Assembly: GCF_030013205.1 (NCBI RefSeq)
Contig: NZ_CP122648.1
DNA: 64,000 nucleotides
Direction: 5' to 3' (one strand)
Source of the DNA: Escherichia coli
GTDB lineage: Bacteria > Pseudomonadota > Gammaproteobacteria > Enterobacterales > Enterobacteriaceae
A model generated the notes under the pieces. It was not told the DNA's origin, did not search any database, and saw only the letters and a list, made by a program, of their open reading frames with translations. The first letter of the stretch is position 1, and each line of letters starts with the position of its first letter. Shown here piece after piece: positions 5,995-16,965 of the stretch. The translations under genes and the position numbers were made by a program.

Positions 5995-6267
5995 ATGTCT
6001 CATACCATCCGTGATAAACAGAAACTGAAAGCGCGTGCCAGTAAGATTCAGGGCCAGGTCGTGGCGCTCAAGAAAATGCTCGACGAGCCGCACGAATGCG
6101 CTGCAGTTTTACAACAGATTGCTGCTATCCGTGGCGCGGTAAACGGTCTGATGCGGGAAGTGATTAAAGGTCATCTGACGGAACACATCGTTCACCAGGG
6201 GGATGAGCTAAAACGTGAAGAAGATCTGGATGTCGTTCTGAAGGTGCTGGATTCTTATATCAAATAA
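5995..6267 (+). CDS. rcnR: Ni/Co-responsive transcriptional repressor (CsoR/RcnR family)
   Basis: 90-aa ORF ([29 protein letters not shown]...) divergent from rcnA. Confidence 0.95.
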
Positions 6268-6304
6268 TTTATTAACGCGATTGTAAAACTGCGGTTTTTA
6301 CTCG

Positions 6305-6333
6305 TTTACAACGCGTGCGCTGGACATTACCAT
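6305..6333 (+). promoter_or_regulatory. Candidate sigma70 promoter, possibly the displaced native thiM promoter
   Basis: TTTACA (6305-6310), a 17-bp spacer, then TACCAT (6328-6333), about 30 bp upstream of the left TPP-aptamer copy. Confidence 0.35.
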
Positions 6334-6360
6334 CCTCCTCTGCGATTTATCATCGCAATC

Positions 6361-6437
6361 AAACGACTCGGGGTGCCCTTCTGCGTGAAGGCTGAGAAAT
6401 ACCCGTATCACCTGATCTGGATAATGCCAGCGTAGGG
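6361..6437 (+). repeat. Left copy of the 77-bp direct repeat: TPP riboswitch aptamer fragment (putative attL)
   Basis: Identical over 77 bp to 15251-15327. The sequence AAACGACTCGGGGTGCCCTTCTGCGTGAAGGCTGAGAAATACCCGTATCACCTGATCTGGATAATGCCAGCGTAGGG is the thiM THI-box aptamer. Confidence 0.9.
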
Positions 6438-6520
6438 GGCCAAAATAGTCTTGAAAATTATGTGGTTGTATCTCTTTTTGACCATAAATCATGCTGTTAA
6501 GGTACAAAAAGGGGTCGTTT

Positions 6521-7828
6521 ATGAGGTCAAGAACTCTCCCATACACATTTCAGCGAAACGGTAATTACTATCTACAAATCCGGCTTTCGGATGGTCGGAT
6601 ATACAAAAAATCACTTTTTACTGACAGTTATCGCGAAGCATCGGCGTTGATGATTGGCCTTACTCCGCACATTCCTTTCGTTAAATCACTCGCTACTCCG
6701 TTGCCGCAATTTAATAAGTTTGTTTCAAACTTGATCGCTTCGTCACGTAACGTAATGATTCCGTTGCCACTCCCTCAGCAATTGAACAATATTTCTAAAG
6801 AAGTTTTGCAGCTTCAACCACCAGCCAAACCGGAAAAGGTGCTAACACTTGCTGATGCGTGGGCTATGTACAAGGAGGAAAGAGGTCGAAATTGGACAAA
6901 ATCGATCTCAATGGCAAATGAGCGTTATATGGAGGTATTGCTTGTTGTCTTGGGAAAAGAAACAGACGTAACGGCAATCACCAAACAAGATATTAAGCGA
7001 GTAATGGAAACTGTCGAAAACTTACCAAAGCGTGTAGTGCAACCGTATAGGTCAATGACTATTCAGCAACTAATCGAATGTGATGATGTGCTGCCAGAGG
7101 ATTTAGTTGGTGCTGAGGCTGTACATAAGCACCTTAAAATCTACAAATCGTTATTCAAAACATTTCTGACTGAAAACAAAGATATTCTATCTAAGTCTCC
7201 GACTGATGGAATAGTAGCGGCACCATCCAAAGCTAGGTTTGGTGCATACAGTGCAGCAGAAATGAAAAAATTTGTAGGATGGGCACTAAAGCAGCCTGAT
7301 GGATGGCAGAAGTGGATCACTTTGTTGTTGGCGTACACAGGAGCCAGAAGAGGTGAGATTGCTAAACTGGAGAAGTCGCAGATCAAATTTGATGAAGATA
7401 GCCAGCGGCACTATCTTCTGATCGCGGAAAGAAGGCTGGGTAAAACTGAGAATGCTACAAGACAGGTAGTGATTCATCCCAAACTGATTGAGTGGGGGTT
7501 TCTGGATTTTGTTAACCGCCAATGGAAAGAGAAAATCTTTTCGGAAGTCTCAGGTCGAAATATGTCAAAGATAGGTAAAGTTCTTTCAGATGTTCGTGAT
7601 CAGCTTGATATTCCTTATCTTGATGATTATGGGCAGCGGCGCTTGGTGCATAGTTTCCGGCATACTATGATTTCTACTTGTTTAGCTGGTTGGGTGAGTA
7701 ATTTGGCGCATCTGCAACAGGTGGTAGGTCATGAGAAAAGCGGTTTAGGGATTACCAGACGCTATTTGCACTCTTTTCCTTTACGTTCAATTTGTTACGT
7801 GATTGATGGTTTGGACTGGTTAAATTGA
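6521..7828 (+). CDS. Tyrosine recombinase / phage-type integrase
   Basis: ATG 6521 with SD AAGGGG (6509-6514). C-terminal catalytic residues are visible: ARRGE (Arg), HSFRH (His-x-x-Arg), GHEK (His), RRYLH (Tyr). The track start at 6491 adds 10 aa. Confidence 0.9.
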   Translation: MRSRTLPYTFQRNGNYYLQIRLSDGRIYKKSLFTDSYREASALMIGLTPHIPFVKSLATPLPQFNKFVSNLIASSRNVMIPLPLPQQLNNISKEVLQLQPPAKPEKVLTLADAWAMYKEERGRNWTKSISMANERYMEVLLVVLGKETDVTAITKQDIKRVMETVENLPKRVVQPYRSMTIQQLIECDDVLPEDLVGAEAVHKHLKIYKSLFKTFLTENKDILSKSPTDGIVAAPSKARFGAYSAAEMKKFVGWALKQPDGWQKWITLLLAYTGARRGEIAKLEKSQIKFDEDSQRHYLLIAERRLGKTENATRQVVIHPKLIEWGFLDFVNRQWKEKIFSEVSGRNMSKIGKVLSDVRDQLDIPYLDDYGQRRLVHSFRHTMISTCLAGWVSNLAHLQQVVGHEKSGLGITRRYLHSFPLRSICYVIDGLDWLN

Positions 7829-7927
7829 TGTGAGCCTCGTGAGAAAGGGAATAAATAGAGAAAATCAAGTTGTTACCTCATTGGCAGGGGATATAATGAC
7901 CATATTGTCATCTTGAGGAACAAAAGT

Positions 7928-9499
7928 ATGGTTGCTCGTTCTAACCTTGTAAATTTAGATGCACTGATTAAGCGTGCTGATTTAGGTTTAAAGATCCAAG
8001 ATAACTCTTCATTTGAAACGCTAAACAGTATTCCTGCAAGAGAATTGAAATCAGGAAGTGGAATTGCTGCGCTTCTGAGAAAACCAGATTTCCAGCGTGA
8101 AACAAATCATTGGGGGCCTGAGCAGGTTGTATCGCTTCTCGAATGCTACATCAATGGTGATTTGATACCTTCCGTTATTCTTTGGCGGTCTTCAACCCAT
8201 CTTTTTGTGATCGATGGTGGTCATCGTTTAAGTGCGTTACGTGCTTGGGTTGAAGATGATTATGGCGACGGTCATATATCCCATCAACTTTTTGGGCATG
8301 ATATTCCTCGTGAACAACGCCGCGCTGCAGATAGAACGAGAAAGCTTGTGAAGGAGAGGGTCGGTAGCTGGGAATATTATCAGAAGTTGCTTGCCGATGA
8401 TGCTTCATTGACCGAGGAACAGCAGAGAAGAATCAGCGTATTAACATCTCGTGGAATCTCAGTCCAATGGGTAGTGGGTGATGTAGATAAGGCAGAAACT
8501 TCATTTTTTAACATCAATATGAAGGGAACTCCTCTTGATGCTATCGAAGAGATGCTTCTAAAAAATCGCAAGAAAAGTATTCCGATAGCAACCCGAGCAA
8601 TTATTCGTGCCGGTAGAGGTCATCGCTATTGGTCGGGGTTTGATCAGAGCATTGCCCAGCAACTTGAAGATAAATCTGCAAAGCTGCATCGTTTGCTGTT
8701 CGAACCTGAAGTTGATCGCCCTATTAAAACTCTTGATCTTCCATTAGGCGGTTCTAGGGGGGTCAGGACAGCGATCCAAGTTTTGAAAGATTTCTTACTG
8801 ATCACTGATTGCAACCAGAATGGTGTTTTGAAAAAAATCGAAGCCTACCCTGATGATGCGTCGGGTGCTGATACGTTAAGAATCCTTTCCAAAGCCACAT
8901 CATTAAGCAATAGAATTACAGGCAATGGCGATGGTAGCTTGGGGCTTCATCCAGCGATTTATTTTTATGGTCCGACTGGAATCCACTCAACGCCAATGTT
9001 TCTAGGAACTGTGCTACTGGTGGCAAAACAACTCTCTAACAATAATGGTCAATTCTTTAAAGACTTCACAACAATCAGATCTAGGCTTGAGAGAATAATG
9101 ATCGAATTTAAGGACTTGATCGCAATGATAGTACAAAAACCAGGTAGTAATGTCCGAGTGGCTCGCTACTGTGATTTTTTAAATGCGGTGATCAAATCAC
9201 TCAAGCAGGGAGAGAATATTGATGAGAGTAAGCTTATCGAGCTGGCCGAATTGGAGGGGAGAATACTCTCTGGAGATTTTAAGAGAACATCAGCAAAAAT
9301 CAGCGATGAACAAAAAAGTAAGGTGTTCATTGACGTGGCTCTGCGCAACGCTTTGAAATGTCCGATTTGCCAAGGTTACCTTGATACTGAAAAGTCAGTT
9401 TCTTATGATCATATCGTACGTGTCCGTGAGGGAGGAGATGGTAATTCTGACAATGTACAGTTGACACACCCTTACTGTAACCAGTCAGTGAAGTGTTAA
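7928..9499 (+). CDS. DUF262/ParB-like (DGQHR-type) N-terminal domain fused to a C-terminal zinc-ribbon HNH nuclease; candidate defence nuclease
   Basis: ATG 7928 with SD GAGGA. Motifs: KPDFQRE, VIDGGHRLSALRAW, FFNINMKGTPL. C-terminal sequence: CPICQGYLDTEKSVSYDHIVRVREGGDGNSDNVQLTHPYCN. The track start at 7913 is a TTG. Confidence 0.8.
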   Translation: MVARSNLVNLDALIKRADLGLKIQDNSSFETLNSIPARELKSGSGIAALLRKPDFQRETNHWGPEQVVSLLECYINGDLIPSVILWRSSTHLFVIDGGHRLSALRAWVEDDYGDGHISHQLFGHDIPREQRRAADRTRKLVKERVGSWEYYQKLLADDASLTEEQQRRISVLTSRGISVQWVVGDVDKAETSFFNINMKGTPLDAIEEMLLKNRKKSIPIATRAIIRAGRGHRYWSGFDQSIAQQLEDKSAKLHRLLFEPEVDRPIKTLDLPLGGSRGVRTAIQVLKDFLLITDCNQNGVLKKIEAYPDDASGADTLRILSKATSLSNRITGNGDGSLGLHPAIYFYGPTGIHSTPMFLGTVLLVAKQLSNNNGQFFKDFTTIRSRLERIMIEFKDLIAMIVQKPGSNVRVARYCDFLNAVIKSLKQGENIDESKLIELAELEGRILSGDFKRTSAKISDEQKSKVFIDVALRNALKCPICQGYLDTEKSVSYDHIVRVREGGDGNSDNVQLTHPYCNQSVKC

Positions 9500-9567
9500 A
9501 ATCACGTTTCACTTTTCGTTGTCATTTGTATCGAACGTTTTTGAGAAAGGGCAGGATTGCGAGCGAG

Positions 9568-9720
9568 TTACCAGCGTAAACAGATAAATACTGTTTTCGT
9601 AAGCCCACTGTCGCCGCTTTCCGCTCTGCAATTTTTGCTTGTCGGGGGGCTAATTGTGGCTTTGCTTGCCATAACATTAAAAGTCAGTAATATACTGAAA
9701 ATTAATACAATACTTTTCAT
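9568..9720 (-). CDS. Possible 50-aa exported peptide (below the ORF-track cutoff)
   Basis: Hand translation of the minus strand gives MKSIVLIFSILLTFNVMASKATISPPTSKNCRAESGDSGLTKTVFICLRW*. The N-terminus is signal-like and the SD is weak (GGGA). Confidence 0.35.
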   Translation of the reverse strand: MKSIVLIFSILLTFNVMASKATISPPTSKNCRAESGDSGLTKTVFICLRW

Positions 9721-9863
9721 ATATCCCATTGAATATTCAGTTCATTGCCAAATAGCAAGCGGAGCACTCTCTCTTTAACGTTGTAGTAACTTAGTTGAAC
9801 AATTTTATAATATAATTTGTCTAAGTTGGTTGATGTATCAAAGCCTTTTTCTGAAGAATGAAT

Positions 9864-9883
9864 TGGCGTGATTACTCACGCCA
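9864..9883 (-). terminator. Hairpin 5 nt after the stop of the 9888-10235 gene
   Basis: TGGCGTGA (9864-9871) pairs with TCACGCCA (9876-9883), loop TTAC. The downstream tract on the minus strand is only moderately U-rich. Confidence 0.4.
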
Positions 9884-9887
9884 GATT

Positions 9888-10235
9888 TTAAATTTCAGAA
9901 CATAGGCTAAGCGTATAGACAGCAGTTTGCCCATCATTGTTAGTCGGTCTCATAACGAAAACAGGCTGACTCCCATTATCAATGTATGTGACTGCAACCC
10001 CTCCATCAGGTGTGGCATACATTTTTGCGATGCTTTTTTGACCTATAAAATCAAGTCTCCAAGTCTTACCACCAAGATGTATTGTCATTTTTTTATCTTG
10101 TATATCAAAAGTTGAATCTACAGAAACTTTCTGACTTCCCGAGTCAATATGACCTTCCTGTATTGCTTTACAGGAAAAGGTTGTGGCGTGGCCCATCACT
10201 GGAATTAACAAAGCGGCAAATACTAGTTTTTTCAT
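9888..10235 (-). CDS. Small exported (periplasmic) protein of unknown function
   Basis: ATG 10235 preceded by GGGAGA. Sec signal peptide MKKLVFAALLIPVMGHA; the mature part looks beta-rich with one Cys near each end. The track ORF has a 19-aa upstream extension. Confidence 0.7.
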   Translation of the reverse strand: MKKLVFAALLIPVMGHATTFSCKAIQEGHIDSGSQKVSVDSTFDIQDKKMTIHLGGKTWRLDFIGQKSIAKMYATPDGGVAVTYIDNGSQPVFVMRPTNNDGQTAVYTLSLCSEI

Positions 10236-10345
10236 TTGTCTCCCTTGATGTGTCAAATGGATGGTGATGCTAATAATACATGATTGATTCAAAATGTCAC
10301 GATTAGTGCGTGGTTAATTGGTGCGTCAAATTGCATCTTTGTGCC

Positions 10346-10810
10346 ATGCGAAAGAATCTGAGATACCTTTTTGGACAACGAGTAAAAGAGTTCCGTATAG
10401 CTATTGGCTTAAGCCAAGAGGCCTTTGCAGATCGGTGTGGTTTTGCTCGTAGTTATATGAGTCGAATTGAGCGTGGTTGCTCTAATGCATCTCTTGATGC
10501 AATTGAGGTTCTGGCTGACGCTTTGCGTATTGAGCCTTGGCAGTTACTAGCTTCTGATTCAAGGAAAACTGATGATCAGGAGGTACTTGTTCCTTATGCT
10601 GCAGATGGGTCGTGTTTTCATCCAGGATTGGCAAGTACTCGCGATGGTTCGTTTAGAGTAGGGGAAAAATCAGCCCAGAAACGTTTCAGTTCGTTCAATG
10701 ACGCTCTCGAATACCTTCGTGGAATGGAAACCGCGAAGTGGCGTAGGCCTAATGCTAGTGGTAATTGGGGAATTGTATCTGCGGTTAAATGGGATCGACT
10801 GAATCAATAA
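10346..10810 (+). CDS. XRE/Cro-family HTH regulator with an uncharacterised C-terminal domain
   Basis: The sequence MRKNLRYLFGQRVKEFRIAIGLSQEAFADRCGFARSYMSRIERG is a classic XRE HTH. About 85 aa of C-terminal sequence are unassigned. Divergent from the 10235 gene. Confidence 0.8.
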   Translation: MRKNLRYLFGQRVKEFRIAIGLSQEAFADRCGFARSYMSRIERGCSNASLDAIEVLADALRIEPWQLLASDSRKTDDQEVLVPYAADGSCFHPGLASTRDGSFRVGEKSAQKRFSSFNDALEYLRGMETAKWRRPNASGNWGIVSAVKWDRLNQ

Positions 10811-10976
10811 GATATCAGTAATTTTCGGGCCACTCCACAAGGCAATAAGTGGCTTAGTGGTGATTATCGAAGGGGAATACAAGCGAGCACCTAGGCACCA
10901 TTGCAAGAACCGCTCAACGCTGAGATCAGCAAGCCCCGATTTCTGCCGACCGTCCCTGTCAAATATCAAGGAGGCA

Positions 10977-11516
10977 TTACGCCTCCTCTTCTTCCTTCTT
11001 AATTCGCTGTACCGTCGAAGGAGCAACATTAAAGATCTCGGCGGTTTTACGCACTGACACGCCATCAGAAAGGGCTTTCTTTATACCTTCTCGATCCACT
11101 GCCTTACCTTTACCACGCTTTCTAGGATTGACGGCTTGCGCTTCTCGTTTACGTTCTAACATCAGTTCACGTTCACACGTTGCCACTGCCGACAACATAG
11201 TAAGCATCATTTTTCCCATCGCGCTTGTAATGTCTGCAATGATCCCTTCTTTGTGAAAGCGAACAATTACACCACGATTATTAAGTTGTTCCACTAAGGC
11301 AAGAATGTCTAAGGTGTTACGCCCTAAACGATCAAGAGAGTGGACGTGTAAGGTGTCGCCTTCTCTCAGATAGGCTAAACACGCTTGTAAGCCTGGGCGG
11401 TTAGTGTCTTTACCAGACAGCTTATCTTCAAAGACTTTGTCGAGAGTTAGTCCTGCAAGCTGGCGATCAGTATTTTGATCTACAGTGCTCACACGCTTAT
11501 AGCCGATATTGCTCAT
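10977..11516 (-). CDS. Serine recombinase (resolvase/invertase family)
   Basis: MSNIGYKRVSTVDQNTDRQ carries the catalytic Ser motif, and there is a C-terminal HTH (VRKTAEIFNVAPSTVQRI). 179 aa from ATG 11516. Confidence 0.9.
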   Translation of the reverse strand: MSNIGYKRVSTVDQNTDRQLAGLTLDKVFEDKLSGKDTNRPGLQACLAYLREGDTLHVHSLDRLGRNTLDILALVEQLNNRGVIVRFHKEGIIADITSAMGKMMLTMLSAVATCERELMLERKREAQAVNPRKRGKGKAVDREGIKKALSDGVSVRKTAEIFNVAPSTVQRIKKEEEEA

Positions 11517-11529
11517 AAAATCCCCTTGA

Positions 11530-11654
11530 TGTATCGATTTGGCACCACTCCAATGCAAATGAGTGTGTTGTATTCATTTGGTCTGTTTCAAGCCTTATGG
11601 ATACGGAATATTACACGATTTAGCTGTATTCATTTGGTATGCCTAATGGATACG
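11530..11654. promoter_or_regulatory. Putative res site (2-3 imperfect inverted-repeat subsites) upstream of the resolvase gene
   Basis: TGTATTCAT (11569-11577) with ATGGATACG (11597-11605), and TGTATTCAT (11625-11633) with ATGGATACG (11646-11654), at different spacings. A weaker third half-site TGTATCGAT lies at 11530-11538. Confidence 0.45.
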
Positions 11655-12165
11655 CAGGGGGATAGATTAAATGGTGTTCTGTTTATACAGGTTTATTTGT
11701 TAGATCAACAAGTTGGCATTTCTAAACAGATGTTTGAACGTTGCCAAATGCCTTGACAACACAAGAAAATGGCTTGCTATGAACGCATTACACGAAATAA
11801 GGCTATAAAAACAAAATAAATTTTAAAATTTGCACAAAAACGAGAAAACTCGTTCGACAAATAATAGATTGGTTTTTAATCGACAATTTCTGACAATTTC
11901 TGATGGTGCTCTGTAAACCGCATTACACAAGGCTTTGCGAAAGTGATGTAAAAGTGAAGAAAGTTAACATTGCACTTTGAAGCCATTTTTCATTGGATTT
12001 TTTAGTAGGGAATTACACAGGGAATAGAGAGCATTATTCTATGATTTACACAGGGAATATAGGGGATTATGGCACACACATAGAAAGGCATTACACAGAG
12101 TGAGTGCTATGTGATGATTGGTAGTAACGGTAGGTCACTGTGAGCTACCCCCCACAGAATTCTGT

Positions 12166-12286
12166 TACCCCTATCAAGTCTAACAGGGGTTTATAAAGAA
12201 TAATAAACCGATGATACCCCTATCAATATTGATACCCCTATTAGCTTTGATATGACTACCCCTATCAAAACTGATACCCGATAAGA
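12166..12286 (+). repeat. Array of five direct repeats (TGA)TACCCCTATCAA followed by an AT-rich stretch (ori-like iterons plus DUE)
   Basis: TACCCCTATCAA at 12166, 12215 and 12257. Variants TACCCCTATTAG at 12233 and TACCCGATAAGA at 12275. An AT-rich run follows at about 12281-12340. Confidence 0.7.
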
Positions 12287-12440
12287 ATAAGTTAATAAGA
12301 ATAATTAAATAATATTCTTTATATCTATATATATGATCTTTTTGCCTTCCGGCGTTAGCTTCACTCTCTGGCAAGCAGCCTTACTCCGCTATCTTTGGGC
12401 TTCGTGGCTGGCCCGTTCCGCTCACACCGAAAGCAAAGCG

Positions 12441-12518
12441 TTACTCTTCTTCGTGTAACTATCGTTGGCGGTAACGCCACACGAAGAAATACTATTGCGC
12501 TGTGCGCAGTAAGAGTAA
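12441..12518. other. GC-richer segment with nested inverted repeats (three-way-junction-like fold; function unknown)
   Basis: TTACTCTT (12441-12448) pairs with AAGAGTAA (12511-12518). CTTCGTGT (12449-12456) pairs with ACACGAAG (12479-12486). TGCGC (12496-12500) pairs with GCGCA (12504-12508). Confidence 0.3.
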
Positions 12519-13364
12519 TCACCTAACCAATCACCTGATTGCTTACGTGTTAACTCTCTCTAACTCTTAATTACCCTCCTACATTTAATAACTCTATTAT
12601 TCTCTGTAGTTGTGTAATTACTCGAAGAGAGAGCGGCTAAAGCTCAATTACACTCTGCTTTCCTCGTGTAATTTCACTAAGCCTCAATACAATTTCACTT
12701 CCTACATTCTGTAGTCGTGTAATAGTTTTCGGTGGGGAAAAGCCAGAGGCGACACCGAAAGAAAATTCTGATCTTATTAATCTTATCTATCTTAGTTAAT
12801 CTTCTTACTTACTTTATCTACTTTATTATTAATAATAGCTTTATAAGCTCTCTGTGTAGCTCTCTGACGCAAGAAACAGCATTCAGGAAGGGAATCACCT
12901 TAGAAAAGTGTTCTTTGCGTCATAATGTGTTTTATGAAGGATTCAGAGGTGTTTCATAACACAAGGTATAGAGGATATTTTAGTTAATTAAAAATAAGGG
13001 GGCTAAATGCTTCTCTAACAGCATTAAGCAGGGTAGAGAATGGAAATGCATTGCCTACGTATATATAAACTCACTACAAGGCTTTACAGAGCGTTTTATA
13101 AAGTAACTAATCTAAGAACTCTCTGTTTTATATCTATCATCATCTTTCCATCATCTAACAAATACAAAATAAGCCCCTTAAATAAGCCTCTGGCGAGCTA
13201 AACAGCCATTACATAAGGGAATGTATTTCTTTTATCAAAACTTCGTTAGAACGCGTTTTAGAGCGTTTTATACAATAAGGAAGAATAGGACCGTCCGCAA
13301 GAGCACGAATTGCTAAGAAAGAATGTAAACGCATGAAAAATATCAGATTTTTTATGAAAATATA

Positions 13365-13393
13365 TTGACAAATGTTTCTTTATATGTAATAAT
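13365..13393 (+). promoter_or_regulatory. Near-consensus sigma70 promoter of the Rep-like module
   Basis: TTGACA (13365-13370), a 17-bp spacer ending in TGT (extended -10 type), then AATAAT (13388-13393). Confidence 0.6.
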
Positions 13394-13444
13394 AGGTATT
13401 AGAGAGACAGAAAAACATTCTTCTCTAAATAATCAAAATCAATG

Positions 13445-13483
13445 CACTTTGAAGCCGTCAGGCTTGCAAGGTGTTTTTCTTTT
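13445..13483 (+). terminator. Intrinsic-terminator-like hairpin in the leader between the promoter and the first ORF (attenuator or short sRNA 3' end)
   Basis: CACTTTGAAGCC (13445-13456) pairs with GGCTTGCAAGGTG (13461-13473) with two mismatches, followed by TTTTTCTTTT. SD AAGGAG and ATG 13504 follow. Confidence 0.5.
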
Positions 13484-13503
13484 AACTGAATAAGGAGTTT
13501 TTT

Positions 13504-13692
13504 ATGAAATGGTTTACACCGGAACACGTCGTAGAGGCATTTAAAAAAGGTGAGCTAACACGACATCAAGTAGTAATGAATCGTAATATGGCAAGGAGTC
13601 GAGGTTATCCAGAGCGTGAAAAATGTTTCGATGCAGCACTAAAAATTATTGATAAATTAAGAAAAAATGAAAAAGGATCTGAAACAGAGTAA
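13504..13692 (+). CDS. Small basic protein of unknown function (62 aa)
   Basis: Strong SD AAGGAG 7 nt upstream of the ATG. First ORF after the promoter and leader. Confidence 0.6.
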   Translation: MKWFTPEHVVEAFKKGELTRHQVVMNRNMARSRGYPEREKCFDAALKIIDKLRKNEKGSETE

Positions 13693-13711
13693 AGAAGAGA
13701 AGGAGAAAACT

Positions 13712-13882
13712 ATGAGCGAAACTACAGAAAAGAAAAGACAACCACGCACTTGCTTTCATATTCCTGATGAAGTATTTCAGGTGTTGTTTAAAGAAGCCAG
13801 AAGTAAACGTATCACTGTTACAGATTACATTCTTGATATGTTGAAAAGAGAGGCTGAAACACTCTCAAATAAAAGCAAGTGA
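13712..13882 (+). CDS. Ribbon-helix-helix (CopG/Arc-like) DNA-binding protein (56 aa)
   Basis: ATG 13712 with SD GAAGGAG. RTCFHIPDEVFQVLFKEARSKRITVTDYILDMLKR fits the RHH strand-helix-helix pattern. The track start at 13667 overlaps the previous ORF. Confidence 0.6.
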   Translation: MSETTEKKRQPRTCFHIPDEVFQVLFKEARSKRITVTDYILDMLKREAETLSNKSK

Positions 13883-13936
13883 TTTTTATCACCATAGTAG
13901 CGCCGTAGAGCGTGATTACATCAAGGAGCTTTTTTA

Positions 13937-14599
13937 ATGATTAAACATACAAAACCTTTCTTAGGAATAGATTATGACTTACTAGCAATCACTTCCCTAG
14001 TGATTAACGGCAAAACAAAAGAAGTAAAACTACATCATAAGATCATTTATTCTTATTTGTTAAGTTTATCTGGCACATATCAAAAGGTAACACCATCTTT
14101 GAAAGGTATTGGTGAGCGGTTAGGAGTAGGTACAGATCAGACGGTACGCCGTCATATCAAAGATCTTGTTTCTTTTGGATGGTTGAAGATTGAGGAAAGG
14201 GCAGGTAGCACAAATGCTTATATTGTCCTTCCTTATGAACAAGAAGCCCAGACACAACAAGAAGCTACCGTTAAAGCTGTTCAGGAACAGCTTCCCCCTA
14301 CGGAAGATAATAAAGAGTTTTCTTTTGATGTTCTTGATGATTGGGATGCGCCTTTACCTTGGGAAATGGAAGAAACGCCATCTGATGAAAAGGTAGCTAA
14401 TGATAATGAGGAGGATGTGTTAGAGAATTTTGCCTCTCTTATCATCCAGGAGAAACACACAAGAACAGGAGGGGCATCATTTATAGAATTTGCAACATCG
14501 TTAGCCTGTAAGCACAGGATAAAGCTACCAAATGGTATTGAGGCATATTTTGCTAAGAAACATCCCAAAGTATATGAAGACTTTGATATTCCATTTTAA
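13937..14599 (+). CDS. Winged-HTH protein with an acidic C-terminal region; putative replication initiator / DNA-binding protein
   Basis: SD AAGGAG precedes the ATG. wHTH-like segment LKGIGERLGVGTDQTVRRHIKDLVSFGWLKIEERAGSTNAYIV, then an acidic tail (DDWDAPLPWEMEETPSDEKVANDNEEDV). It lies next to the iteron region. The CDS call is solid; the function is inferred. Confidence 0.6.
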   Translation: MIKHTKPFLGIDYDLLAITSLVINGKTKEVKLHHKIIYSYLLSLSGTYQKVTPSLKGIGERLGVGTDQTVRRHIKDLVSFGWLKIEERAGSTNAYIVLPYEQEAQTQQEATVKAVQEQLPPTEDNKEFSFDVLDDWDAPLPWEMEETPSDEKVANDNEEDVLENFASLIIQEKHTRTGGASFIEFATSLACKHRIKLPNGIEAYFAKKHPKVYEDFDIPF

Positions 14600-14794
14600 T
14601 AAGGAGGGTTATGATTCAATATTTAGTAAAAAATAAAGTAGAATTCATCTATTCCACTCTCTAAAAATCTATCTGTGTAATATAAAATGAAAACATTATG
14701 GTATTAGCTATGTATTGGTTATTGTTCTTTCTGGCCTTAGAAACATATGCAAGTAAGTCTGGAAAACGAAAGTAATATATTGATGATTTGTTTG

Positions 14795-15052
14795 TTATAA
14801 CTTCGTGGTGTCAAGTCCAGCAGTTTTGAGTCGCTCGGTAAGATTTCTCATTTTGCTGAACTCTGTACCAAAGCTGGCTTTAAGTCCTACACCTTCGCAA
14901 AACTCTTTTGCCGTGACGTTTTTCAGATGGTCAACATATTTGGTCATCTGGAGGTGCATTTCCATCGTTTGGCTATTTCGTGATGCGCTGCTAATGGCTT
15001 GCTTAATGTTCTCGTAGATCTGGGTTCTGTCATTGTTTATCCCACCTATCAA
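14795..15052 (-). CDS. Small hypothetical protein (85 aa from a TTG start; may start internally)
   Basis: Open frame at the right end of the island. The only full-length start is TTG; the first in-frame ATG gives 56 aa (MEMHLQMTKYVDHLKNVTAKEFCEGVGL...). Confidence 0.45.
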   Translation of the reverse strand: MIGGINNDRTQIYENIKQAISSASRNSQTMEMHLQMTKYVDHLKNVTAKEFCEGVGLKASFGTEFSKMRNLTERLKTAGLDTTKL

Positions 15053-15146
15053 ATTTAGAAAAATAATATTAATTAGCTAATTAATATAATCAATGGTTTT
15101 CACCATCTGAATGATAGCCGTTAATTGTTTCTTTTTCATTCCTTCT

Positions 15147-15168
15147 ATGGGGTACAAAATGGGGTACA
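15147..15168 (+). repeat. Tandem ATGGGGTACA repeat near the right island end (candidate integrase arm-type sites)
   Basis: ATGGGGTACA at 15147-15156 and 15159-15168. A related GGTACAAAA occurs at 6501-6509 near the left end. Confidence 0.4.
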
Positions 15169-15250
15169 CAGAGAAGAAGCAATTAATGGAGGCGAGCTTG
15201 CATCTGCAAGCCACTTCCCCTAAGCTGGCACAAAATATAGAGATTCAACC

Positions 15251-15379
15251 AAACGACTCGGGGTGCCCTTCTGCGTGAAGGCTGAGAAATACCCGTATCA
15301 CCTGATCTGGATAATGCCAGCGTAGGGAAGTCACGGACCACCAGGTCATTGCTTCTTCACGTTATGGCAGGAGCAAACT
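15251..15379 (+). promoter_or_regulatory. thiM TPP (THI-box) riboswitch: aptamer plus expression platform (right repeat copy, putative attR)
   Basis: The aptamer sequence matches the well-studied E. coli thiM riboswitch. It continues into AAGTCACGGACCACCAGGTCATTGCTTCTTCACGTTATGGCAGGAGCAAACT and the thiM ATG at 15380. Confidence 0.9.
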
Positions 15380-16168
15380 ATGCAAGTCGACCTGCTGAGT
15401 TCCGCGCAATCTGCGCACGCGTTACACCTTTTTCACCAACATTCCCCTCTTGTGCATTGCATGACCAATGATGTGGTGCAAACTTTTACTGCCAATACCT
15501 TACTGGCGCTCGGTGCATCGCCAGCGATGGTTATCGAAACCGAAGAAGCCAGTCAGTTTGCGGCTATCGCCAGTGCGTTGCTGATTAACGTTGGCACACT
15601 GACGCAGCCACGCGCACAGGCGATGCGTGCCGCCGTTGAACAGGCAAAACGCTCTCAAACACCCTGGACGCTTGATCCAGTAGCGGTTGGTGCACTCGAC
15701 TATCGCCGCCGTTTTTGTCTGGAACTTCTGTCTCATAAGCCAACCGCCATACGTGGTAATGCTTCGGAAATCATGGCATTAGCTGGCATTGCTAATGGCG
15801 GACGGGGAGTGGATACCACTGACGCCGCAGCTAATGCGATACCCGCTGCACAAACACTGGCACGGGAAACTGGCGCAATCGTCGTGGTCACAGGCGAGGT
15901 GGATTATGTTACCGATGGCCATTGCACCGTTGGCATTCACGGTGGCGATCCGCTAATGACCAAAGTGGTAGGAACTGGCTGTGCATTATCGGCGGTTGTC
16001 GCTGCCTGTTGTGCGCTACCAGGCGATATGCTGGAAAATGTCGCATCTGCCTGTCACTGGATGAAACAAGCCGGAGAACGCGCAGTCGCCAGTAGCGAGG
16101 GGCCAGGCAGTTTTGTTCCACATTTCCTTGATGCGCTCTGGCAATTGACGCAGGAGGTGCAAGCGTGA
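15380..16168 (+). CDS. thiM: Hydroxyethylthiazole kinase
   Basis: 262-aa ORF ([33 protein letters not shown]...) directly after the TPP riboswitch. Confidence 0.95.
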
Positions 16169-16965
16169 AACGAATTAACGCTCTGACGATTGCCGGTACT
16201 GATCCGAGTGGTGGTGCGGGGATTCAGGCCGATCTTAAAACCTTCTCGGCACTTGGCGCTTATGGTTGCTCAGTTATTACTGCACTGGTGGCGCAAAATA
16301 CCCGTGGTGTACAGTCGGTGTATCGCATTGAGCCTGATTTTGTCGCCGCCCAGCTCGATTCGGTGTTCAGCGATGTGCGAATCGACACCACTAAAATCGG
16401 TATGTTGGCGGAAACCGATATTGTTGAAGCGGTGGCAGAACGGTTGCAACGTTATCAGATCCAAAACGTGGTACTCGACACCGTTATGCTGGCAAAAAGC
16501 GGCGACCCGCTGCTTTCACCTTCGGCGGTTGCTACGCTGCGCAGTCGATTATTGCCACAGGTTTCATTAATAACGCCAAACTTGCCCGAAGCTGCTGCCT
16601 TGCTCGACGCGCCACACGCGCGCACCGAACAGGAAATGCTGGAACAAGGGCGATCGCTGTTGGCGATGGGCTGTGGCGCAGTGCTAATGAAAGGTGGTCA
16701 TCTGGATGATGAGCAAAGCCCTGACTGGCTGTTTACTCGTGAGGGGGAACAACGATTTACTGCACCGCGCATTATGACCCAAAACACCCACGGCACTGGT
16801 TGTACGCTCTCTGCGGCGTTGGCTGCACTACGCCCGCGCCATACAAACTGGGCTGACACCGTACAGGAGGCAAAAAGCTGGCTTTCATCGGCGTTAGCCC
16901 AGGCCGACACGCTGGAAGTTGGTCACGGTATTGGTCCGGTTCACCACTTCCACGCCTGGTGGTGA
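16165..16965 (+). CDS. thiD: Hydroxymethylpyrimidine / phosphomethylpyrimidine kinase
   Basis: 266-aa ORF overlapping the thiM stop by 4 nt ([27 protein letters not shown]...). Confidence 0.95.

Follow-up and report, generated by a model that had tools for sequence, protein, structure and literature searches.

A small integrative island of Escherichia coli that probably uses the riboswitch aptamer of the thiM leader as its attachment site

Site-specific islands are usually described at tRNA or tmRNA genes or at the ends of protein-coding genes. We analyzed a window of 64,000 nucleotides from Escherichia coli (RefSeq assembly GCF_030013205.1, contig NZ_CP122648.1) in which a segment of 8.8 kb at positions 6438-15245 lies between two copies of the thiamine pyrophosphate (TPP) aptamer of the thiM leader. 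We read this segment, hereafter the thiM island, as a small integrative genomic island whose own integrase recombines the attachment site of the island (attP) with a chromosomal site (attB) in the TPP aptamer, the crossover falling in or near P5 and restoring a chimeric riboswitch, and we give this reading a probability of roughly 0.88. The site has been catalogued before: the supplement of TIGER/Islander lists 'Eco824.15.TPP_RNA' and 'Kox2.11.TPP_RNA' without comment (PMC7192596), and that of Hochhauser et al. (2023) lists an 'rcnR-thiM' island of 7956 bp labelled RM_type_IV, with the mobile-element type 'None', outside their 41 hotspots (PMC10121019). Fomenkov et al. (2017) placed the type IV enzyme EcoBLMcrX of E. 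coli B in a variable island beside thiM (PMC5487053). The aptamer, the repeat and the specificity of the integrase are not discussed in any of the three, and full-text literature searches (thiM or riboswitch together with integrase or attachment site) retrieved no paper describing a riboswitch attachment site. An earlier reading of the window, made from the sequence alone, had called the target unusual, which is fair, although these catalogue entries mean that it is not wholly unrecorded.

The island is bounded by a direct repeat of 82 nt on the plus strand (attL, 6356-6437; attR, 15246-15327) in which 81 of the 82 positions are the same. As the sequence-only reading had claimed, the 77-nt block at 6361-6437 and 15251-15327 is identical and four of the five bases upstream of it match (CAATC against CAACC); an exact repeat of 77 nt cannot arise by chance within 64 kb. 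The lone mismatch is T6359 in the left copy, against C in the right copy. Alignment of K-12 with both junctions showed that its attB reads CAACC, the same as the island copy, so that T6359 is a single-nucleotide polymorphism (SNP) of the left flank in the window strain. Both copies exceed the Rfam gathering score for TPP (RF00059, 54.3 bits), in agreement with the earlier identification of the repeat as the aptamer of the thiM leader. With 71.2 bits over the full model, the right copy (15249-15345) has an intact P1 in which a single pair, the outermost, is non-standard. As had been noticed, it is also the only copy that runs on into the native P1 3' strand and expression platform, followed by thiM (15380-16168) and thiD (16165-16965), all within a native stretch at 15328-16965 on the plus strand; from 15246 onward the window is identical to the K-12 leader. 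By its score, its P1, its expression platform and the thi gene downstream, the right copy is thus a TPP riboswitch, its aptamer being completed by 15328-15345 and its 5' portion, up to about 15313-15325, being island-borne. At 61.9 bits, the left copy (6359-6454) scores lower, and two non-standard pairs break its P1 helix, because the DNA past GCGTAGGG is no longer thiM leader: it is island DNA, the next gene is that of the integrase (int), and the combination of an intact P1, a platform and a thiamine gene is not found there. attL is therefore a thiM aptamer without the P1 3' strand, in which the flank and most of the aptamer are host DNA. The GC content is about 0.33-0.48 within the island and about 0.47-0.57 in the flanks, consistent with the AT-richer DNA that had been remarked on between the copies.

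To describe the empty site, we used a survey set of 5426 complete E. coli genomes. Window positions 6000-15800 are 100% identical to E. coli ETEC1748 (pig, Belgium), and at least 80% of the island is held by 37 of the 5426 genomes. With the same positions as query, K-12 and the other island-free genomes listed returned a span of 911 bp, which is the query minus 8890 bp. K-12 has the order rcnR, one aptamer, thiM, which confirms the adjacency of rcnR and thiM that had been stated, and K-12 and most other complete E. coli genomes consist here of the left flank, a single copy and the right flank, as the sequence-only reading had predicted for the rcnR-thiM spacer of island-free genomes. The island-free sites of Lelliottia and Enterobacter are likewise single-copy. 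Together, the repeat geometry and the empty site support the attL-int...attR layout proposed earlier.

The int gene (6521-7828, plus strand) encodes a tyrosine integrase of 435 amino acids. Its open reading frame (ORF) starts 83 nt past the left repeat, the distance given in the earlier reading, and the Prokaryotic Genome Annotation Pipeline (PGAP) has the same start in the identical genome ETEC1748. The protein matches PF00589 (29.4 bits for a cut-off of 27.1) and the PHROG integrase families phrog_1 and phrog_216, and the catalytic residues R276, H377, R380, H404 and Y415 are invariant among 12 homologues. A profile search of the PDB with the integrase alignment returned no match, and a search of NCBIfam returned sub-threshold matches only. 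We detected 545 homologues of the integrase, including some at about 78-82% identity in Cronobacter, Enterobacter, Citrobacter, Klebsiella, Kluyvera and Serratia.

An integrase of this family was found in 221 of the 5426 E. coli genomes, and every copy is chromosomal. The E. coli loci that we inspected, 15 homologous copies (two of them fragments) and the identical ETEC1748 locus, all lie between rcnR and thiM. We then scanned other species with one genome per species, yielding 17 loci from at least 10 named genera, among them Buttiauxella, Dryocola, Lelliottia, Enterobacter, Serratia, Silvania, Leclercia, Atlantibacter, Erwinia, Pantoea and Kosakonia. In 16 of these 17 loci, the end of an aptamer copy lies about 85 nt in front of int; the other locus, from Candidatus Pantoea haifensis, is a remnant in which a fragment of int stands about 470 nt upstream of a single thiM aptamer. 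The attL copies score 57-63 bits in all loci, above the Rfam TPP threshold, and wherever the fetched flank was long enough a second, better-scoring aptamer (73-77 bits) and then thiM follow about 3.4-11 kb downstream. Outside E. coli the left neighbour is not rcnR, and because of this we take the thiM leader itself to be the target. The search of other genomes that had been proposed thus places the same integrase clade at the thiM aptamer in all 16 E. coli loci and in all 17 loci of other species, the Pantoea remnant included with its int fragment and single aptamer. With a recombinase that has its catalytic residues, direct repeats of part of the target, an empty site in single copy and the same clade at the same target, the thiM island is an integrative element. 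It is a gene-restoring integrative island and not a new category; it is distinct as a variant in that the target is a riboswitch aptamer, that the 5' portion is restored together with promoter-like DNA, and that the product is a chimeric riboswitch.

To place the crossover within the repeat, we used natural sequence variants as markers. In one E. coli island (L021), attL has the native P3 hairpin and attR a foreign P3 (CCCCATCAATGATGGG); in another (L023), attL has the P3 allele CTTTG and attR the other allele. About 988 E. coli genomes, Nissle 1917 among them, have the CTTTG allele natively, together with a linked SNP in the flank. The P3 of island-free Enterobacter is CTTTG as well, so the CCCCATC-type P3 found in Enterobacter attR copies is island-borne. 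In E. coli strain 2-1 (L044), both the P3 and the J2-4 (TATT) of attR are foreign, and attL has the native TATC. These variants therefore point to an exchange 3' of J2-4. At the L045-type right end (12 genomes including ABWA45), aptamer identity is limited to AATGCCAGCGTAGGG, about 15 nt, and in attL the end of the identity varies with the type of island, being GCGTAG, GCGTAGG or GCGTAGGG. The variant boundaries on both sides (L021, L023, L042, L044 and L045) therefore argue for an overlap segment within AATGCCAGCGTAG (6423-6435 in attL, plus strand, and 15313-15325 in attR). This segment is enclosed by an imperfect P4/P5 dyad, CCTGATCTGG-ATAATG-CCAGCGTAGG, at 6411-6436, and strand exchange most likely takes place in or just 3' of the P5 loop, within AATGCCAGCGTAG, which comprises the P5 loop and its 3' strand. 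The two halves of the dyad, CCTGATCTGG and CCAGCGTAGG, would serve as the two core sites of the integrase (Int).

The sequence-only reading had suggested that the island carries a replacement copy of the aptamer. It does carry a copy, and the claim can be refined: with a crossover at the extreme 3' end, the island would bring nearly the whole aptamer and DNA upstream of it. Because the target is at the 5' end of an operon, it is the upstream part that the island carries, namely a thiM-promoter-like block, the leader and about 62-75 nt of aptamer, which would include the P1 5' strand, P2, P3, J3-2, J2-4 and the 5' strands of P4 and P5. The contribution of the island begins upstream of P1 and takes in J2-4 at the least, and probably also the 5' strands of P4 and P5. 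After integration, attR would be a chimeric but complete riboswitch, with its promoter and ligand pocket from the island and the 3' strands of P5 and P4, the P1 3' strand, the expression platform and thiMD from the host. The displaced host copy, attL, would keep the native promoter, lack the P1 3' strand and read into int; since the target is a 5' leader, it is the native thiM promoter that is left reading into attL and int.

The native thiM promoter region attached to attL lies at 6305-6353 (plus strand), and DNA identical to it precedes the single aptamer of K-12. It contains two candidate promoter elements, TTTACA-17-TACCAT (6305-6333), returned by a promoter scan, and a -10-like TATCAT (6348-6353), read directly in the sequence. 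The corresponding island-borne region upstream of the restored riboswitch (15196-15245, plus strand) has a palindrome, GCTTGCATCTGCAAGC (15196-15211), and a putative promoter, TTGCAT (15198-15203)-17-TAAGCT (15221-15226). The final 95 nt or so of the island, containing the GCTTGC-N4-GCAAGC palindrome and ACTTCCCCTAAGCTGG, are strongly conserved across islands of differing cargo, and we call this the R1-type right end. The island end can be aligned with the sequence that natively precedes thiM in island-free Lelliottia amnigena; the alignment needs no gap and keeps the register of the aptamer, with 23 of 36 positions in agreement by our count, and both sequences have a TTGCxx hexamer 17 nt from TA(A/C)GCT. 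We hypothesize from this resemblance that the island brings a replacement thiM promoter. Another right end, 'R2', was considered as captured Enterobacter promoter DNA and rejected, its alignment with the native Enterobacter upstream region being gapped and unconvincing.

Of the 5426 E. coli genomes, 461 (about 8.5%) have the R1-type right end joined to the thiM leader. Among them are O157:H7 and O55:H7, in which int and attL have been lost and thiM and thiD are still annotated as intact. An island promoter is indirectly supported by these genomes, since 461 of them keep the R1 end at thiM and thiMD is intact in O157:H7 and O55:H7. The remnant of O157:H7 and O55:H7, of about 2.2 kb (E. coli O157 AR-0430, L002, 1269-3640), comprises an RptR-like gene, one GGGGTACA repeat, the promoter-like block and attR, and by its sequence the thiM leader of these strains is partly island-derived DNA fixed in place. 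A different outcome is seen in ABWA45 (NZ_CP022154.1; L045, 7990-8263) and, with it, in a total of 12 complete E. coli genomes, where GT-rich DNA stands in place of about 62 nt at the 5' end of the thiM aptamer and AATGCCAGCGTAGGG is all of it that remains in front of the native platform. In ABWA45, PGAP gives no riboswitch annotation at this right end, and expression of thiMD may be free of TPP control in L045-type strains.

We next compared the arms of the island. The left arm, which is the right arm of attP, forms the int leader (6438-6520, plus strand), for which we aligned 20 attL-to-int leaders and used alifold and single-sequence folds. It opens with a degenerate copy, GGCCAAAATAGTCTT (6438-6452), of the palindrome GGCCGAAATTCGGCC, which stands directly past attL in most islands (attL right flanks of L004-L022) and shows the compensatory changes GGCCAAAATTTGGCC and GGCCAAAACTTGGCC. 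Further on, CTCTTTTTGACC (6472-6483) pairs with an arm-type-like site, AAGGTACAAAAAGGGG (6499-6514), that overlaps the int ribosome-binding site. The right arm has two direct ATGGGGTACA repeats, 12 bp apart (15147-15171, plus strand), as candidate arm-type sites. The GGTACA positions pointed out earlier are present, at 6501-6506 and, as ATGGGGTACA, twice within 15147-15168. Most related islands have three (G/A)GGGTACA repeats with a spacing of 12 bp about 100 nt left of the aptamer, and the window has two; GGGTACA occurs three times in the 64-kb window, two of them in the right arm of the island. In the left arm, the motif appears again at the int ribosome-binding site (GAGGTACAAAAAGGG; window 6499-6514) and, in most islands, also at the int start codon (ATGGGGTACA). 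Right ends of a second type have phased CACA-type repeats instead, and int of one such island starts with ATGGGCCACAGA. The conservation of phased repeats across related islands strengthens the earlier idea of arm sites: the phased GGGGTACA repeats of both arms are probable arm-type sites to which Int would bind, one of them overlapping the int ribosome-binding site.

The same leader contains a conserved hairpin of 10-11 bp (window 6472-6514), in which CUCUUUUUG pairs with the int ribosome-binding site ACAAAAAGGG. It is present in all four leaders that we folded (the window, L005, L021 and L023; z-scores of -0.7 to -3.5). The hairpin could keep translation of the integrase low, or it could be an inverted pair of Int-binding DNA sites. 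Because its arms are nearly invariant and overlap DNA motifs, control at the RNA level is inseparable from conservation at the DNA level.

Several observations weigh against an island that crosses over at P5, brings its own promoter and still moves. The J2-4 allele (TATC, TATT or TACC) usually fits the host genus in both attL and attR, which would suit a crossover at J2-4, and five loci (L009, L011, L016, L017 and L045) look like tandem arrays or deletion composites, in which host and island are harder to assign. A consensus scan of the right end of the island found no plus-strand sigma-70 site and minus-strand sites only, and TTGCAT-17-TAAGCT matches the consensus at just 3 of 6 bases per hexamer. 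Exact-pattern scans for the attP junction gave 0 matches in viral and metagenome contigs and none in the fetched loci, and no excisionase is recognisable among the genes of the island. A crossover at J2-4 was the placement that we first favoured, and it was dropped, with some doubt remaining, over the foreign J2-4 in attR of L044 and the 15-nt identity of the L045 type; the J2-4 pattern was given less weight because only single transitions separate the alleles and L044 clearly breaks it. The case for a plus-strand promoter is made by conservation and by homology to the native sequence upstream of thiM rather than by a match to the consensus. As for the attP scans, these null results neither favour nor oppose excision.

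The missing attP junction in public viral and metagenome contigs and the lack of an identified excisionase would also suit an immobile relic, that is, one ancient insertion inherited vertically whose integrase no longer works, and so would the many decayed versions of the island (O157:H7 and O55:H7, from which int and attL are missing, and copies that insertion sequences have cut short). We consider such a relic unlikely, as the integrase is full length with invariant catalytic residues, phased repeats are retained in both arms and the family is spread across many genera with unrelated left flanks. Moreover, E. coli strains that differ in their native P3 have related islands of differing cargo at this one site, and the P3 of attR tracks the island and not the host, which requires independent insertions. 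Tandem insertion would further account for three loci (L009, L011 and L017) in which right-end sequence of an island or fragments of int stand to the left of attL. With L007, these make four loci in which island right ends or int fragments stand immediately left of attL, a layout that indicates tandem arrays or successive insertions at the thiM aptamer. The island was not present in the phage and plasmid collections that we searched, which contained small patches only.

A second alternative concerns attL. Its aptamer may be a working sensor, in which case int would be controlled by the native thiM promoter and a TPP aptamer lacking P1, and expression of the integrase, and through it excision or re-integration, would follow thiamine status. 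That the attL copy passes the Rfam threshold in all loci is in keeping with this idea, as is the near-invariance, across island types, of the island-borne 3' part of attL (P4/P5), for which the riboswitch on the thiM side has no need; the latter is also explained if P4/P5 provides the core sites of Int. Likewise, the int ribosome-binding site is held in the conserved hairpin in every leader folded, but the arms of this hairpin coincide with arm-type-like DNA motifs, and their conservation may thus have its cause at the DNA level. Alifold gave a weak long-range closure of the P1 5' strand with int codons 2-3, a helix of 3-4 bp that is invariant and shows no covariation for or against. Since the P1 3' strand and the native switching helix are gone from attL, where two P1 pairs are non-standard, we read its aptamer as a by-product of integration. 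We thus set aside a thiamine-responsive integrase, as the folds show the hairpin but no covariation and no credible replacement of P1, and we keep it as an improbable rival.

The last alternative, homologous (Campbell-type) recombination by RecA over the 77-82 bp of aptamer homology, with no role of the integrase in the choice of target, is very improbable: the perfect identity is longer than the minimum for RecA, the agreement of the island aptamer with E. coli extends to the 5 nt that precede it and the host-like J2-4 alleles in island-borne segments suggest an occasional homologous exchange between copies, but L045-type islands share only about 15 nt with attB at the same position, the boundary between host and island lies at the same 3' end in every informative case instead of being scattered along the repeat, and the integrase clade is found with this site in genera that have different aptamers.

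We then annotated the remaining genes of the island using Pfam, PHROG, PGAP and PADLOC. The gene past int (7928-9499, plus strand) is predicted, in agreement with its PGAP name, to encode a GmrSD-type type IV restriction enzyme, with an N-terminal DUF262/GmrSD_N domain (PF03235, 47.3 bits) and a C-terminal HNH domain (PF01844, 22.3 bits), the sole C-terminal nuclease family reported. The rcnR-thiM entry labelled RM_type_IV by Hochhauser et al. (PMC10121019) is close to the present island in size. The content of this slot varies: it is GmrSD_N with HNH in the window, HNH with AIPR in the commonest E. coli variant, SIR2 with ImmA and HigB genes in E. coli C, and DUF1837 with a DEAD-box helicase in strain GF130. 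Judging from these gene contents, the slot is one of exchangeable, presumed anti-phage cargo. It is followed by a gene for a small hypothetical protein (9888-10235, minus strand; phrog_35183), present in several islands of the same family, a helix-turn-helix (Xre/C-protein-like) regulator (10346-10810, plus strand; PF13560, PF01381 and PADLOC control-protein models) and a small serine recombinase of the resolvase or invertase type (10977-11516, minus strand; PF00239, 118 bits; phrog_125, DNA invertase).

The next 2 kb or so (11517-13503) are without a convincing ORF. They contain iteron-like repeats of 28 nt at 12010-12070 and three occurrences of TACCCCTATCAA, at 12166, 12215 and 12257 (12166-12268), and an Rfam scan of 11517-13503 found no match. 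From the repeats, this stretch may be a replication origin; it could also be a packaging site or another RNA. Two small ORFs follow on the plus strand (13504-13692 and 13712-13882) without a family match in Pfam or PHROG; either could encode a regulator or an excision factor, and by our own reading of its sequence the product of the second looks like a ribbon-helix-helix protein. Further downstream is a gene for a Rep-like protein with an HTH_36 domain (13937-14599, plus strand; PF13730), which matches PHROG replication-initiator families and is related to phage O and DnaD-like initiators. Escherichia phage muut (MN850573, 146 kb) has a 430-bp stretch that is 94.7% identical to window 13877-14305, at the start of this gene. 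Beyond this patch the island has no match in phage records; the patch could reflect an exchange between phage and island or a relationship of helper and satellite.

At the right end, a small repressor of 81 amino acids (14795-15040, minus strand) is assigned to the RptR family (HTH_73; PF24718, 93.5 bits; PDB 9r2z, E-value 8e-29). RptR is a repressor of defence islands described in 2025 (PDB 9r2z) that binds TAGCTA (PMC12255303). A TAGCTA box stands upstream of the gene, at 15074-15079, and is conserved in related islands, consistent with the predicted membership of this family.

The part from the resolvase to Rep, including the ORF-poor stretch (window 10960-14750), is 87-89% identical to part of the elements found at tRNA-Thr and tRNA-Gly. 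Two such elements of E. coli (L024 at tRNA-Thr and L025 at tRNA-Gly), of about 12 kb each, share this backbone of resolvase, non-coding stretch and Rep, and have a different integrase together with major capsid and 'baseplate' proteins; elements of this type may form one family of phage satellites. The right half of the island is thus a module of replication and regulation in common with capsid-encoding, satellite-like elements, which suggests that it is replicative and needs another element for its transfer. The island would then spread by excision, replication and the help of that element.

If a whole clade of integrases across the Enterobacteriaceae takes a riboswitch aptamer as attB, as read here, the problem posed by a target at a 5' end would be solved by carrying a promoter-like region and most of the aptamer, leaving a riboswitch that is half mobile element and half host. 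This is a natural system in which to test riboswitch modularity, with aptamer halves from islands on host platforms and one variant apparently without an aptamer. It also explains a recurrent insertion point of defence genes in E. coli to which earlier surveys assigned no recognisable mobile element, and the compact pair of integrase and attP, with a conserved single-copy chromosomal target, may be of use for engineering enteric strains. A further proposal, which we put forward as doubtful, is that regulation of thiamine salvage depends on the strain, because the promoter and ligand-binding half of the thiM riboswitch are mobile DNA in 461 of the 5426 genomes and the aptamer is removed in 12, and that expression of the integrase and stability of the island respond to TPP, because int stands behind the native promoter and a P1-less aptamer. 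Were it true, thiamine-salvage regulation would differ among strains according to the island carried, and the stability of the island would be tied to TPP.

The thiM island can be compared with four kinds of described elements. It resembles phage satellites (phage-inducible chromosomal islands, PICI; capsid-forming PICI, cf-PICI; and P4-like elements) in its small size, integrase, Rep-like initiator with iteron-like repeats, repressor and defence cargo; unlike them, it has no capsid, packaging or primase gene by Pfam and PHROG between 6438 and 15245 and no helper phage is known, so that we do not class it as a satellite. It is like the defence islands and integrase-only islands of E. coli (PMC10121019; PMC5487053) in being small and integrase-bearing with exchangeable anti-phage cargo. 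With the dusA islands, as described by Farrugia et al. (2015; PMC4482086), it shares a target at the 5' end of a conserved host gene and a widespread integrase family defined by its site; the target in dusA is protein-coding, whereas here it is an RNA aptamer and the product a chimeric ligand-sensing RNA. A further parallel is with the islands and prophages of tRNA and tmRNA genes (P4-type; sublocation rules of Williams, 2002; Islander/TIGER), which likewise have a tyrosine integrase gene next to attL at a structured-RNA locus, and tandem arrays and decayed remnants at the site. A stem-loop would probably act as the core dyad in both, with the displaced part of the target carried along so that the target stays functional, and the use of the anticodon or T stem-loop by tRNA-targeting integrases would parallel a crossover at the P5 loop. 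Unlike in these islands, the target at thiM is a cis-regulatory riboswitch and not a stand-alone RNA gene. It is also the 5' portion that is restored, the identity running upstream from the crossover so that a promoter must travel along, and the functional copy is the one distal to int, the copy proximal to int being a truncated aptamer behind the host promoter.

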